In this document: piece by piece, positions 1,801 to 13,424 of the stretch
How positions within the stretch are numbered: the stretch's first letter is position 1
Layout of the letters: each line of letters opens with the position of its first letter
Source of the DNA: a bacterium
Lineage (GTDB): Bacteria; Electryoneota; Electryoneia; Electryoneales; Electryoneaceae
Reading direction: 5' to 3'
DNA: 13,650 nt
NCBI GenBank assembly: GCA_043801585.1
Contig: JAZDLX010000051.1
Location: 1 to 13,650 of the forward strand
Translations under genes and position numbers: made by a program
Notes under the pieces: generated by a model
What the model was told of the DNA's origin: nothing
Seen by the model: only the letters and a program-made list of their open reading frames with translations
Databases searched by the model: none

Positions 1801-3750
1801 ATGAGCATTGTCACCCTCAACGCAGTCGAACAGAGTTTTGGCGCACAGCAGGTATTGCTGCCGGTGTCGATAAAGATCAACTCCGGGGCGAAGATTGGGC
1901 TGGTGGGGCGCAACGGGGTTGGCAAGACAACCCTGCTGAAGATCATCGCGGGGCTGCAACAGCCCAGCGGTGGTCATGTCGTCCATGCGTCCGAACTCCG
2001 CATCGGCTTCCTCGAACAGGATCCTCACTATCCCGAAGGCCACACGCTCTATGCGGAGGTGCGAGAGGGGATCGCCGCGGTGGACGAGCTGGAGGCCGAG
2101 CTTCGCCACCTCGAGGAACTGCTCGCGGAGCTATCGCTGAAGGATGATCCCGAGACTCAACAGCGGCTGCTGGACCGCTACGCGAGGACACAGGAGAAAT
2201 TCGAGGGTCGAGGAGGCTGGCAGGCGGACGCCCGTGTCGGGGCGGTGCTGCTCGGCCTCGGCGTCGCGGAGCAGGACTGGTACCGCGAGGCGAAGACCTT
2301 TTCCGGCGGTGAACGCAATATCATCGGTCTCGCTAAAATTTTCGTGCAGGACCCGGATCTGACGCTGCTCGACGAGCCGGGAAATCACCTTGACTTCGAG
2401 GGACTCGACTGGCTCGAACAGGAACTCCGACGGTACCGGGGGGCGCTGCTGCTCGTCAGCCACAACCGCTATCTGCTTGACACCGTGACCAACACGACCT
2501 GGGAGCTCGAGCGCGGAAAAATTGAACTGTTCAGCGGGAATTATTCGTTCTATCGGGCCGAAAAACTGCTGCGCCAGGAGAAAGCGGAGATGGTGGCAAA
2601 ACGGGCCGAACGGGATATCAACCGGCTCCGTTTCCAGATCCAGCGGCTGAAAAGCTGGGCAAGCGTGTATGACAATCCGAAGTTGGCGCGGACGGCGAAA
2701 CGGTTCGAGCGGCGTGTCGAGGAGCTGAAGGAAGATACCAAGGTCACCCGTGAGGACACCCGCCGGTTGGGGCTTCGCCTTGCCGGTTCCGCGACGAAAG
2801 GGGATATCGCCCTCGACGTGGTGGATTATTCGCGGCGGCACGGCGACGGCGGCGCTCTTTTCAAACACATCTCCTTTCGCATCGGACAGGGGAATCGGGT
2901 GGCGCTGGTCGGACCCAACGGCTCGGGCAAAACGACATTCCTGCGTGACGTGGTCCGCGAGGGGCGTTGGGAGAGTGACAGGCTTCGTGTTGGGCGGGCA
3001 ATGAAAATTGGATATCTCTCTCAGACGGGAGAGGAATTGAACCGTGACAACCCCCTGACCGACGAACTGATGCACCTTGCGGGATTGCGCCGCGGCGAGG
3101 CGGAGGCGCTGCTCTACCGTTTTCTGTTCGCCCACGATGACCTGGACAAACCGGTGTCAGTGCTTTCGGGTGGAGAGCGGGTTCGCCTTCAGCTCGCGGC
3201 GTTGATGGCGGGCGGATCGAACTTCCTGCTGCTCGACGAGCCGACGAACCACCTCGACGTGTTCTCGCGCGAGGCGGTGGAGGACGCCCTCGAGGATTTC
3301 GCCGGAACGATCCTTGTCGTCAGCCATGACCGCTATTTCCTCGACAAGATCGCCGAACGTGTGATCGCGGTGAAAACGCCAACGATCGAGAGTTATGACG
3401 GCAACTTCTCCGAGTTCTGGGAGGCGTACAAGCGGCTCCGTGAACAAGCGGCGGAGGAGGTTGTGGAGAAAAGACGCGCCGCGAAAGAGACCAGGAAACA
3501 GAAACGGCTCGAGCGGTTTAAGAAAATGAAGTTCAACGCCGAACGGTTCAAGTGGCTGGAACAGGAGATCGCGCGCCTCGACCAACGGCGTCAACGGCTC
3601 GAGGGTGAGATCGTCCGCGAACGGGAGAAGGGCAACCGTAAGCGCGAGGCCGCCAAACGGGAGAAGCTCGAGAAGACGCGGGATCAACTCGAGCTGGTCT
3701 GGGCGGAGTGGACCGCGATGGGTAACCGCAAAGCGGATTACGGACTGTGA
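1801..3750 (+). CDS. ABC-F family ATP-binding protein (tandem ABC domains, C-terminal coiled coil)
   Basis: Two Walker A motifs (GRNGVGKT, GPNGSGKT), signatures FSGGE and LSGGE, Walker B LDEPGNHLD and LDEPTNHLD, switch SHNRY and SHDRY; no TM segments; charged helical tail. Confidence 0.95.
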   Translation: MSIVTLNAVEQSFGAQQVLLPVSIKINSGAKIGLVGRNGVGKTTLLKIIAGLQQPSGGHVVHASELRIGFLEQDPHYPEGHTLYAEVREGIAAVDELEAELRHLEELLAELSLKDDPETQQRLLDRYARTQEKFEGRGGWQADARVGAVLLGLGVAEQDWYREAKTFSGGERNIIGLAKIFVQDPDLTLLDEPGNHLDFEGLDWLEQELRRYRGALLLVSHNRYLLDTVTNTTWELERGKIELFSGNYSFYRAEKLLRQEKAEMVAKRAERDINRLRFQIQRLKSWASVYDNPKLARTAKRFERRVEELKEDTKVTREDTRRLGLRLAGSATKGDIALDVVDYSRRHGDGGALFKHISFRIGQGNRVALVGPNGSGKTTFLRDVVREGRWESDRLRVGRAMKIGYLSQTGEELNRDNPLTDELMHLAGLRRGEAEALLYRFLFAHDDLDKPVSVLSGGERVRLQLAALMAGGSNFLLLDEPTNHLDVFSREAVEDALEDFAGTILVVSHDRYFLDKIAERVIAVKTPTIESYDGNFSEFWEAYKRLREQAAEEVVEKRRAAKETRKQKRLERFKKMKFNAERFKWLEQEIARLDQRRQRLEGEIVREREKGNRKREAAKREKLEKTRDQLELVWAEWTAMGNRKADYGL

Positions 3751-3846
3751 GCCGCCAGCGAAGTCGCTGGAGCCAAGTGCCGCCCCAAGGCTTCGCGGGT
3801 CGGCGAAAGATCAATCATGGCGGGGACTGCCAATACCTTGAAAGAA

Positions 3847-3890
3847 ACGAATTAGAATAAACCCTGTTTGCAAGCAAACAGGGGCACATA
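3847..3890. repeat. REP-like repeat family A, copy 2
   Basis: ACGAATTAGAATAAACCCTGTTTGCAAGCAAACAGGGGCACATA; 10-bp palindrome arms at 3862-3871 and 3874-3883; identical to 5133-5176. Confidence 0.95.
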
Positions 3891-3913
3891 TCGATTGAAC
3901 ATTTCAACTCGAC

Positions 3914-4357
3914 TCAAAACCAAGGGTGGCTAGAATAATACTCCGGACCGAAAGGTCTATTCTCTTGTCTCCAGAATTCAGTTGCCTCGGGAGATAGTTG
4001 CTCGCCACTCCAAGAGTTGTGGAGCATGCATACTAAAATGCATTCGGTCAAAATATACATGGCATTGCCAATACCTCTGTGCCTGTGTTTGGAATCAACT
4101 GCGGAATTCTGGCAATACCCAATAGGTTTATAATCAAATTCAGGACAACTATCAGCGAGATTAAAACCGGCATCCCCAACGGTTTCCCCGCTAAACAGAA
4201 CTCTAATGAAAACACTATGCATCGGATCATCTTGAGGGAGACGATACCGAATCTCATAACCCTGATTTGTAACTCTATCAATGTAGCTTTGTCTGTCATC
4301 AAGGTTCACGCCTTCAATACTATTCCACATCACCTCGCTTACGTGCCGTTTGCCCAT
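3914..4357 (-). CDS. Putative GNAT-family N-acetyltransferase (147 aa)
   Basis: VDSKHRHRGIGNAMY matches the GNAT acetyl-CoA-binding motif A (R/Q-x-x-G-x-G/A), followed by SPEATEFW. Start placed at ATG 4357, which has GGGGA upstream; the longer 4459 start overlaps a repeat. AT-rich. Confidence 0.7.
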   Translation of the reverse strand: MGKRHVSEVMWNSIEGVNLDDRQSYIDRVTNQGYEIRYRLPQDDPMHSVFIRVLFSGETVGDAGFNLADSCPEFDYKPIGYCQNSAVDSKHRHRGIGNAMYILTECILVCMLHNSWSGEQLSPEATEFWRQENRPFGPEYYSSHPWF

Positions 4358-4457
4358 AGTATCCCCATTATTGTTAATGCATATCGGATTAGTAAGTGAA
4401 CCGCTCCCATAGACAATGTACTGTCGGTCATTTTGAAAAAAACATTTACTAAAAATC

Positions 4458-4497
4458 ATGTGCCCCTGTTTGCTTGCAAACAGGGTTTACTCTAATT
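4458..4497. repeat. REP-like repeat family A, copy 3 (inverted relative to copies 1, 2, 4, 5)
   Basis: ATGTGCCCCTGTTTGCTTGCAAACAGGGTTTACTCTAATT is the reverse complement of the 40-bp core with one mismatch. Confidence 0.95.
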
Positions 4498-4532
4498 TTC
4501 AAATCATCCACCAATGGAAAAAATCGTCAACT

Positions 4533-5093
4533 ATGTCTCATTTTGTCCATGAAGAAGGGCACGCCCATTTCATCACCTTTTCGACCGCGGGGAAGAAGTG
4601 GTTGTTCAAAAGCCCCGCCCTTTACCAACTGTTCGTTGAACATCTTGATCGCGCGCGGGAGAAGCACCAGTTCTATCTCTTCGCCTATGTTGTTATGCCG
4701 AACCATGTTCATTTGTTGATCTTTCCCAAAGGGACAGAAAACATCCCAAACATTCTGCGTACCATCAAACGACCATTCGCATACCACGCTTTGCAGATTC
4801 TTCGTAAAAGCGATCCAGACTTGGTGAAATCACAGGAAGTCAATCACGGAAACCGGACCGTGACTCGGTTCTGGCAACCGGGCGGAGGACTCGACAGGAA
4901 CATTACCAATCCTGAACGCGTCAGACGGGCGATTGAATACATGCACGGGAATCCTGTACGACGTGGTCTCGTTGAAAAACCGACGGATTGGACCTGGTCG
5001 AGTGCGCGGTTCTGGGAAAACGGAACAACTAATCCGATTCGGATGGATGTACCTGAATGGTTGGGACGTGATCCATCGAAAGAGCAGCAATAG
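4533..5093 (+). CDS. rayT: REP-associated tyrosine transposase (RAYT / TnpA-REP, Y1 HUH family)
   Basis: HFITF, AYVVMPNHVHLL (HUH), FWQ...DRNI, and IEYMHGNPVRRGLV...DWTWSS (catalytic Tyr plus the RAYT-type C-terminal motif). Start set at ATG 4533 because ATG 4458 lies inside the repeat. Confidence 0.92.
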   Translation: MSHFVHEEGHAHFITFSTAGKKWLFKSPALYQLFVEHLDRAREKHQFYLFAYVVMPNHVHLLIFPKGTENIPNILRTIKRPFAYHALQILRKSDPDLVKSQEVNHGNRTVTRFWQPGGGLDRNITNPERVRRAIEYMHGNPVRRGLVEKPTDWTWSSARFWENGTTNPIRMDVPEWLGRDPSKEQQ

Positions 5094-5132
5094 TACTCTT
5101 TCGACTCAACGGATATAATAGACGGAACAGAT

Positions 5133-5176
5133 ACGAATTAGAATAAACCCTGTTTGCAAGCAAACAGGGGCACATA
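5133..5176. repeat. REP-like repeat family A, copy 4
   Basis: 44/44 identical to 3847-3890; followed by a tandem duplication of GCACATA (5170-5176, 5177-5183). Confidence 0.95.
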
Positions 5177-5184
5177 GCACATAG

Positions 5185-5373
5185 CTGCGTCTCTCCGGGG
5201 ACCTGCCGATGGTGATCGAGGCGGTGGACATTCACGAGTGCATTGACAAGGTGCTGCCGAGGATCGACGAACTGCTCGAGGAAGGCCTGGTCACGCAGGA
5301 GAAGGTTCGTGTTCTCCATTACGCACCGACCAAAGAAAGAGAAGTAACGTTTCGATCCGTCACGGTTTCCTGA
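5185..5373 (+). pseudogene. 5'-truncated DUF190 (PII-like) gene remnant
   Basis: Manual translation LRLSGDLPMVIEAVDIHECIDKVLPRIDELLEEGLVTQEKVRVLHY...* matches the DUF190 C-terminal pattern as I recall it (LRLSxDLPxVIExVD...LPxLDE...GLVTxEKV). It is preceded by an in-frame TAG, so the N-terminal half is missing. Confidence 0.8.
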
Positions 5374-6352: not shown

Positions 6353-6528
6353 TCGGTCTTCAGGTTTGTTTGAACTCCACGGCGGGGCGATCGGATCGAA
6401 GAAGCGCTGAGTTAATAGTCCCTAATTTTTACAGGATAGCTCAACATTGGACGATTCAGGCAAGGATCAAGGATGGATTTCCTGTCGAAAACAGAGCTTC
6501 TTGGCAGATAAGTATCGACTCTCAGATT

Positions 6529-6615
6529 AAATGTACCAGGTACAATTATTTTACACCACAATTTGCTGTATAATATATTGAATTAAATAAATATAAAATT
6601 GTACCTGGTACATTT
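6529..6615. repeat. Repeat family B, REPIN-like inverted doublet 2
   Basis: Perfect 19-bp inverted repeat AAATGTACCAGGTACAATT (6529-6547) / AATTGTACCTGGTACATTT (6597-6615) with a 49-nt, very AT-rich spacer. Shares AAATGTACCAGGTAC with the doublet at 1624. Confidence 0.9.
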
Positions 6616-6621
6616 TTTCTC

Positions 6622-11829: not shown

Positions 11830-12168
11830 ATGATCGATATTGGCTATGCGTCCGCAAAATGGGAGAAGGTATGCACCAACGAGAATGCGGCGCGAAAAAT
11901 ACTTGGAGACCCAAACCTGTTTGAATTACTAGTGGAACGTCTTGAACATATTAGTGCACATAATTCGGTCGCTGAAATTCCGCTAGGGGGAACTAAGGAT
12001 TGGCATCCTCTGAAGGGTGACCGAAAAAACCAATGGTCAATAACAATAAGAAAACCATATGTAATCTGTCTTGCAGCAGCAGGCGAATTTGAGACTGACG
12101 AAAATGAATCGGTTAAGCCTAATACTGTGACAGCTTTAGAAGTAGTATTTGTTGGCGATTATCATTAG
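11830..12168 (+). CDS. higB: HigB-like (RelE/ParE superfamily) toxin
   Basis: 112 aa; HPLKGDRKNQWSI and C-terminal DYH; GAGGA RBS; lies upstream of an Xre antitoxin (toxin-first order). Confidence 0.85.
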   Translation: MIDIGYASAKWEKVCTNENAARKILGDPNLFELLVERLEHISAHNSVAEIPLGGTKDWHPLKGDRKNQWSITIRKPYVICLAAAGEFETDENESVKPNTVTALEVVFVGDYH

Positions 12169-12189
12169 GGAGTTGACCTAGGAGGAAAA

Positions 12190-13308
12190 ATGAGCAACAG
12201 AGTTATACCCAAACGCTACGAAGCTCCCATTGCTATATCTCCTGGATTCACAATTCGTGAAATGCTTGACGATTTGAATATGACACAGTCTGACCTAGCA
12301 CTTCGTATGGGGAGGCCAGAACAAGCAATAAGCGAGATAGCCCAAGGCAAGAAGGCAATCACGGCCGAGACAGCTTCTGAGCTAGAATCGGTATTAGGAA
12401 ACTCTCAACAGTATTGGCTGAATCGAGAAGCAAACTTCCAGGCTGCAAAAGATCGCATTAGACAGGAGAATACGATAGCAAGAGATACCGAGAGGTTGAG
12501 TGCATTTCCTTACAAGGAGTTAGTAGACAGAGGATTTGTGCATGAAGCAAATCGCCAAAGCAATGCTGGAAAACGCGAGCAGGTTCTCAGTTTACGAAAG
12601 TTCTTAAGGGTTGCAGATTTTGACGCGTTGGATAGGTATGTCAACAAATATGCTATTGCCTCTAGGTTGGCAAATACTACTCCGCTCTCAACAGAAAAAC
12701 TTGCTGTTTGGCTTCGACTCGGGGAGATTCAGGCAGAAAACGAAGATTGGCAGGCCAGTACGTTTAAAAAAACACTTCTAGAAAAATCCTTGTCAGAGCT
12801 TAGAAATCTTTCAATGGAGAAAGACATTAATCAATTAATGATCAAATTAAGAACCATTGGTGAAAAAGCAGGCGTAGTATTTCTGTTCGTTCGTGAGTTT
12901 AAAGGATTTCCTACTAAAGGTATGACGGTTTGGAAAAACCAGCAACCATTCATAATGCTAACCTTGCATGGCAAGCGGTGGGACATGTTATGGTTTACTC
13001 TGTTTCATGAAATAGGGCATATTTTGCTCCACGATAGAAAAATATTTATTGAAGGGAAAGGGATTCAGACGGTTGGGCCAGAGGAAGAAAAAGCGAATGA
13101 ATTTGCTAGAGACACTCTTATTCCCCTAGAACAATACATGCAATTCTGTAGCGATGGTCGCTTTTCAGTTCAGTCAATAATTGATTTTGCTGAAGAACAG
13201 GGTGTCGATCCATCAATTGTGGTCGGAAGACTTATGTATGAAGGAAGGGTTAGAAACGATAATCCCAACCTTCAAAAATTATTTAGACGAGTAAGTTGGA
13301 TTAGTTGA
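12190..13308 (+). CDS. higA: HigA-type Xre HTH antitoxin fused to an ImmA/IrrE (peptidase M78) zinc-metallopeptidase domain
   Basis: N-terminal SPG..IREML...MTQSDLALRMG....ISEI..GKKAITAETA..LE.VLG....YWLN; C-terminal FTLFHEIGH...EEKANEFA (HExxH...E); AGGAGG RBS. Confidence 0.9.
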   Translation: MSNRVIPKRYEAPIAISPGFTIREMLDDLNMTQSDLALRMGRPEQAISEIAQGKKAITAETASELESVLGNSQQYWLNREANFQAAKDRIRQENTIARDTERLSAFPYKELVDRGFVHEANRQSNAGKREQVLSLRKFLRVADFDALDRYVNKYAIASRLANTTPLSTEKLAVWLRLGEIQAENEDWQASTFKKTLLEKSLSELRNLSMEKDINQLMIKLRTIGEKAGVVFLFVREFKGFPTKGMTVWKNQQPFIMLTLHGKRWDMLWFTLFHEIGHILLHDRKIFIEGKGIQTVGPEEEKANEFARDTLIPLEQYMQFCSDGRFSVQSIIDFAEEQGVDPSIVVGRLMYEGRVRNDNPNLQKLFRRVSWIS

Positions 13309-13378: not shown

Positions 13379-13424
13379 GAATTGGTATAGATCCTGTTGG
13401 CTCGCTGCACCAAACAATCAGGGC
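13379..13424. repeat. REP-like repeat family A, copy 5 (degenerate long-loop variant)
   Basis: GAATTGGTATAGATCCTGTTGGCTCGCTGCACCAAACAATCAGGGC aligns without gaps to copy 1 (340-385) at 37/46. Confidence 0.82.

Follow-up and report, generated by a model that had tools for sequence, protein, structure and literature searches.

The 13,650-nt stretch of bacterial DNA analysed here (the window) carries a REPtron, REP2-rayT-REP3 with its tags outward, together with a foreign gene, and this unit of about 1.4 kb has replaced crcB and half of a DUF190 gene, about 830 bp of host sequence, with one junction at the tag end of REP3. We place at about one half the probability that the REPtron came as a RAYT-made circle with a captured gene of predicted GNAT fold and entered at a REP already in place, REP1 and REP3 then being the direct repeats left behind. 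The best evidence for this reading comes from related loci and not from the window itself, the strongest lead being the permuted order of a rayT and its cargo in two genomes of another family, G038 and G047. In window coordinates, the locus comprises:

1801 to 3750, plus strand: host ABC-F ATPase gene, the left flank (NF000355 above cut-off), conserved in the sister species G001
3755 to 3808, no strand: a copy from a different small repeat family, lying between ABC-F and REP1, with similar copies on 4–5 further contigs
3847 to 3890, minus strand: REP1, a direct copy of REP3; tag GTGC at 3887-3884 toward the cargo, hairpin at 3862-3883
3914 to 4357, minus strand: cargo gene for a 147-aa protein of predicted GNAT fold, from a small family whose end, W-x-Q-x-N-R-P-F-G, is conserved
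4458 to 4497, plus strand: REP2, the upstream REPtron end, one base off REP1/REP3; tag GTGC at 4460-4463, hairpin at 4464-4485
4533 to 5093, plus strand: rayT (TnpA-REP), 186 aa, with HUH (H58, H60) and Y136 intact
5133 to 5176, minus strand: REP3, the downstream REPtron end; tag at 5173-5170 outward, hairpin at 5148-5169
5170 to 5184, no strand: right junction, where the end of the REP is duplicated in tandem over 7 nt, with host homology back at 5184
5185 to 5373, plus strand: 3' half of the DUF190 gene, covering Pfam profile positions 55-97 only, with the 5' half missing

An earlier note on this DNA had described three near-identical repeats around an intact RAYT gene, and both descriptions are borne out. 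Positions 3843-3890 and 5129-5176 match at 47 of 48 sites and, within them, 3847-3890 and 5133-5176 are identical (44/44), while the inverted copy REP2 matches REP1/REP3 at 39/40; each of the three folds, as DNA, into a hairpin of 9 bp (z −3.2 to −5.1 relative to shuffled sequences). The rayT product, for which 4533 is the likely start, reaches 99.8 bits with the NCBIfam model NF047646, whose cut-off is 80, carries the motifs HVH, FWQ and YxxxNP, and has a single match among PDB sequences, E. coli TnpA-REP 4ER8. The HUH motif and the tyrosine in YxxxNP, the inverted flanking hairpins of REP2 and REP3 and the dispersed intergenic repeat are all those of a RAYT/REPtron. An IS200/IS605 element is not indicated, the protein scoring 18.7 bits against the IS200 TnpA model NF033573 (cut-off 55) and having no near-identical copy in its own genome (G000), where the further RAYT-like genes are at most 57% identical to it. 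One RAYT homologue, 57% identical, is labelled at source as Candidatus Electryonea clarkiae, and scans of the genome collection for rayT found nothing.

The orientation of the repeats was read against 58 mapped RAYT loci (53 from relatives, four others of G000, and the window), an inverted repeat surrounding rayT in 50 of them. The outer repeat end is GTGG (26) or GTGC (8) in 34 of the 50 seeded loci; one G038 locus, L192, where the tags nearest rayT face rayT, was misfiled in this scripted count. The GTGC tag of the window repeats lies at the end that had previously been read as 3'. GTGC probably represents a variant of the tag, differing from the GT[AG]G consensus of known REPs, and GTGG is the commoner form among relatives. 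Because GTGC marks the tag end, REP2 and REP3 form the usual tag-out pair and the tags of REP1 and REP2 point at the cargo, an arrangement that corresponds to 'TT' in the terms used in the accessible text of PMC3733652. Whether a third REP is inward or direct does not discriminate between readings, the two being near even in a hand count of the mapped loci.

The window REP belongs to a genome-wide family, for which a profile search of G000 kept 40 copies, nearly all intergenic. Same-contig neighbour pairs are direct in 12 of 15 cases and inverted in three, two of which are the window locus and the third of which spans 10.7 kb. REP1 and REP2 are thus the sole close inverted pair around a passenger gene among the 40 copies and, for that reason, not a genome-wide cassette type. 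This bears on the model of the earlier note, which takes REP1-GNAT-REP2 for a cassette of REPIN-like, non-autonomous kind that is swapped in and out at a rayT platform fixed in place. The gene does neatly fill the REP1-REP2 interval, and a filled tag-out pair exists in G038 and G047; however, the tags in the window point inward, the genome-wide search with the repeat disclosed no population of cassettes, and G001 has no rayT at this site, so that the platform is not fixed. As described in the part of PMC3116915 available, REPINs are non-coding doublets of about 100 bp with one hairpin and, like the window locus, place two inverted REPs beside rayT, whereas the window pair has inward tags and encloses 568 nt with a gene; it therefore has no short non-coding spacer, and doublets are not the usual form of this family. 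We regard the cassette model as very improbable. Its companion claim, that near-identity of the repeats implies recent activity, does not stand either: the cores of REP1 and REP2 recur without mismatch over 39 nt in G001 (a genome about 80% identical), so that the near-identity gives no date for the event. A cleavage-site signature at the tag ends was also considered and rejected, since the window junction reads CT on the REP strand but the bases flanking the tags of the 40 copies vary. A singlet long-loop variant of the same REP family lies at 340-387 of the window, and a degenerate copy at 13379-13424 follows an AT-rich HigB-like and HigA/IrrE-like pair (11830-13308) whose upstream side is without a visible REP.

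The cargo, with 4357 as its likely start (147 aa), lies about 24 nt from REP1 and 100 nt from REP2. It is taken as a real gene because an exhaustive protein search found 99 relatives at E≤0.001 (a word-indexed protein search found none), its structure is predicted with confidence (pLDDT 92) and its top fold matches are mostly GNATs (E 3.5e-4, TM about 0.5). The matching GNAT structures are 13–18% identical and point to no particular substrate, and Pfam PF00583 is below cut-off; the predicted model is that of a GNAT fold, in agreement with the GNAT-like, AT-richer gene first reported. Aminoglycoside resistance was considered as its function and rejected, the aminoglycoside-acetyltransferase fold matches being generic GNAT likeness; PADLOC gave no match. 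The gene has a GC content of 0.44 and a GC3 of 0.42, compared with 0.61 and 0.75 for ABC-F and a genome GC of 0.56, and no full-length match was found in the 78 other genomes of the phylum, so that it is foreign and lineage-specific. None of 44 loci of the cargo family (43 viral, one bacterial) has rayT or the window REP, and the family is consequently not a habitual RAYT cargo; a scan of the genome collection for the family gave one locus, which is unrelated. Relatives of the cargo are common in viral contigs, where the REP pattern was not found, and the domain also occurs as repeats in very long proteins of 700–2500 aa (P0002, P0026, P0039, P0077 and others).

Comparison with G001, which is of the same genus but a different species, defines the replacement. 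The ABC-F flank is 82.5% identical in nucleotide sequence up to 3748, homology ending at the ABC-F stop; G001 continues with crcB and a whole DUF190 gene and has no rayT there. In the window, host homology resumes inside DUF190, about 10 nt past the REP3 tag, and neither crcB nor the 5' half of DUF190 was found anywhere in G000 (assembly 92% complete). The earlier expectation that cargo breakpoints would lie at the repeats thus holds for one breakpoint, about 10 nt from the REP end. Alignment of 22 REP regions of G001 to G000 revealed no gene between inverted REPs in G001, and one REP site with 1.9 kb extra in G000. At another spot, two host-like sugar-nucleotide genes lie beside a variant REP in G001 (L073:4450-6750); these are missing at the corresponding spot on contig C150 of G000, which has instead a pile of repeats of several families.

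The permutation is seen in G038 and G047, which belong to one genus and have in common a rayT (80% nucleotide identity) and two AT-rich cargo genes (75%), the cargo match beginning and ending at GTGTGG tags. With arrowheads for REP direction, the order in G038 (L192 / L225) is host1, REP>, the two cargo genes, REP<, rayT, REP>, spacer, REP<; in G047 (L185 / L237, L226) it is REP>, spacer, REP<, rayT, REP>, the same two genes, REP<, SPFH gene. The units are therefore circularly permuted, and the host1 site in G047 is empty, holding small REPs only (an empty small REP pair). The SPFH site in G038 holds a deletion remnant of the other order, in which the first ~26 nt of rayT run straight into the last part of cargo gene two. 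A single circle that enters a small REP pair through one or the other of its REPs would be expected to produce these two orders; for a circle of rayT-REP>-cargo-REP<, entry through REP> yields precisely the order seen in G038. It should be kept in mind, and was counted against the circle model, that these RAYTs are of another family and 43% identical to that of the window. The suggestion that the locus acquires genes is therefore upheld in part: RAYT-plus-cargo units recur and relocate in relatives, but the unit that moves seems to include rayT.

Such circles could also form and integrate by host recombination between direct repeats of 36–44 bp, with rayT as a passenger supplying the repeats. 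This would be consistent with the two REP variants of G038 and G047, which differ and of which every exchange joins like with like, and with the deletion junction of the G038 remnant, which is inside genes and not at a REP. It is, however, at odds with the junctions of tag end to mid-gene in the window and on contig C208 of G000, which are without long homology and are placed as the action of an HUH enzyme would lead one to expect, and we consider it improbable.

The C208 locus (L296:7386-10115) contains a second rayT, for which there is a separate REP family. Its downstream tag adjoins, to within about 2 nt, the last 134 bp of an HTH gene, 87% identical to the full copy 2 kb upstream, the differences being mostly synonymous in a by-eye reading; at the equivalent site, a single HTH gene and then a single REP are found in G001. 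Such an arrangement is compatible with capture, by a circle, of DNA upstream of the REPtron and later entry at a single REP. On the upstream side of this rayT there are AT-rich DNA and one copy of the window REP. Junctions of this kind are rare, which was counted against the circle model, since none of the 146 outward-reading frames at the relatives' tag ends is truncated in mid-domain; the scan covered outward frames and left aside 118 inward ones.

In the circle model, RAYT would bind the REP hairpin on single-stranded DNA and cut one REP at its tag end; this end would be joined to a site beyond the other REP to give a circle of REP, rayT, REP and flanking DNA. The circle would then return to the chromosome through an exchange within a REP of like kind, mediated by RAYT or by host recombination; the crcB/DUF190 deletion may reflect an earlier tag-end joining event or be part of the same event. 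The model predicts strand, junction and target exactly. The chemistry is proposed by analogy with E. coli TnpA-REP and a Marinomonas enzyme: in the accessible text of PMC3333891, the former cleaves on the 5' or the 3' side of the REP, even at distances beyond 400 nt, and is capable of strand transfer, and its authors proposed BIME circles, while guide-directed site choice is described for the latter in the available part of PMC8266576. Against the model, neither a circle junction nor an empty allele was seen for the window locus, G001 being another species, and circular rayT DNA was not detected in E. coli, according to the portion of 10.1101/2024.07.17.603846 available.

A further reading is that the REPtron and the foreign gene entered a variable site independently, and that a single REP later spread next door and was kept, perhaps as a terminator for the cargo. 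REPs multiply near their tnpA-REP gene (PMC8266576, as far as its available text goes), REP1 is terminator-like on the cargo sense strand, and the REP1/REP3 variant occurs also on contig C106 of G000 and in G001. The neighbours of rayT point the same way in part, 11 of 16 REP-bracketed ones being host-like in GC (mgtE and an ABC transporter, for example), which was counted against the circle model. Low-GC neighbours make up 5/16 of the bracketed and 6/71 of the unbracketed (Fisher p 0.026, at a post hoc threshold), an excess that was counted for the circle model, although AT-rich genes are found without brackets too, and a GC rank test of the two groups is not significant (p 0.098). These counts include the window, treat non-independent kin as separate, probably contain some spurious ORFs, and drop four loci without a seed as well as unbracketed sides with less than 2.7 kb of flank. 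Some rayT sites are moreover common to several relatives, which fits vertical descent and was likewise held against the circle model. Independent entry nonetheless leaves unexplained the permuted order and empty site of G038 and G047, the captured HTH end on C208 and the mid-gene junction at the REP3 tag, and we judge it unlikely, though the most probable of the rival readings.

Among known systems, IS200/IS605 and ISCR/IS91 resemble the window unit in combining HUH chemistry on single-stranded DNA with circular intermediates, capture of flanking DNA and homology-based entry. The window unit differs from both in being single-copy, with inverted and not asymmetric ends, a small Y1 enzyme and entry apparently at resident REPs.

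The likeness to REPtrons is closer, and includes a Class-2 HUH Y1 protein with YxxxNP, inverted tagged hairpins and a dispersed cognate repeat; relative to the REPtrons in the accessible parts of PMC3333891, PMC6006769 and PMC8266576, the window unit differs in its GTGC (not GT[AG]G) tag, its mostly singlet repeats, the foreign gene and the apparent relocation. With TIRtrons (PMC3733652) it shares RAYT-like genes flanked by inverted repeats, moderately abundant repeat families and several such genes per genome, but passenger genes or permuted relocation were not found in the part of that description available. In the portions accessible, the REPtrons of E. coli are said to stay fixed and not to be true transposons, with one site holding hicAB in some strains (PMC3333891), there is said to be no evidence of self-transposition of RAYTs (10.1101/2021.07.10.451892), and RAYTs emerge as mostly vertical and non-jumping across PMC6006769, PMC3733652, PMC3333891, PMC8266576, PMC5581495, PMC3116915, PMC9727169, 10.1101/2021.07.10.451892 and 10.1101/2024.07.17.603846. 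The apparent movement of cargo departs from this view of RAYTs as domesticated. The parts are known, and what seems to be new is that rayT apparently moves, together with captured DNA, into REPs already present, of which no report was found in the literature searched (titles and the starts of abstracts, with supplements and most subscription journals outside it).

Taken together, the permuted orders, the empty site, the remnant and the two gene-truncating tag-end junctions in one genome suggest that some RAYTs move and carry genes. A tentative extension, which we hold to be possible but doubtful, is that RAYTs of the GTGG/GTGC-REP clade are autonomous gene-capture systems that circularise their own gene with adjacent DNA and re-integrate at any resident cognate REP, accessory genes, some of them defence-like (FRG, macro, Nmad3, P-loop ATPase, GNAT), then having the dispersed REPs to land on. 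Should RAYT units move in this manner, integration sites for such genes would be provided by REP families, and under the wider reading RAYT-REP systems would gain the benefit to the host that they were thought to need.

Most RAYT loci are plain REPtrons without cargo, a further point against the circle model. Among 80 metagenome RAYT loci, 56 have a repeat and about three bracket a sizeable gene (our own reading; many contigs are short). The window order (REP<, AT-rich gene, REP>, rayT, REP<) recurs in G019, a point in favour of the circle model, the gene there having a GC content of 0.37 and encoding a 535-aa ATPase-domain protein; an empty site for this locus was looked for and not recovered. 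Among the genes bracketed outside the window are those for two FRG proteins (PADLOC PDC-S15), for Nmad3 and for proteins with a macro or an ATPase domain. In G005, two rayT loci (L174:6365-8863 and L207:4286-5783) have AT-rich FRG-domain and macro-domain genes between REPs, and one of the REP families has about 90 genomic matches. Relative to these two loci, G012 has the host gene of one side without adjacent REP or rayT, the other flank not having been found or the contig ending there. At the metagenome loci L099, L127 and L165, distant RAYTs accompany a gene that lies between additional copies of the RAYT's own repeat; in two cases this gene is AT-rich.

REP copies lie inside the rayT coding sequence at L176 and L189, as described for subclass 2.4 in the accessible text of PMC6006769. 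At L166, L167, L169 and L189, from four genomes and two families, rayT is beside or near a kbl-like gene, which suggests that this site is old or repeatedly used. Two intergenic inverted repeats of the window, at 1624-1707 and 6524-6620, have a common core, GTACC(A/T)GGTAC, and are perhaps regulator binding sites or another small element.
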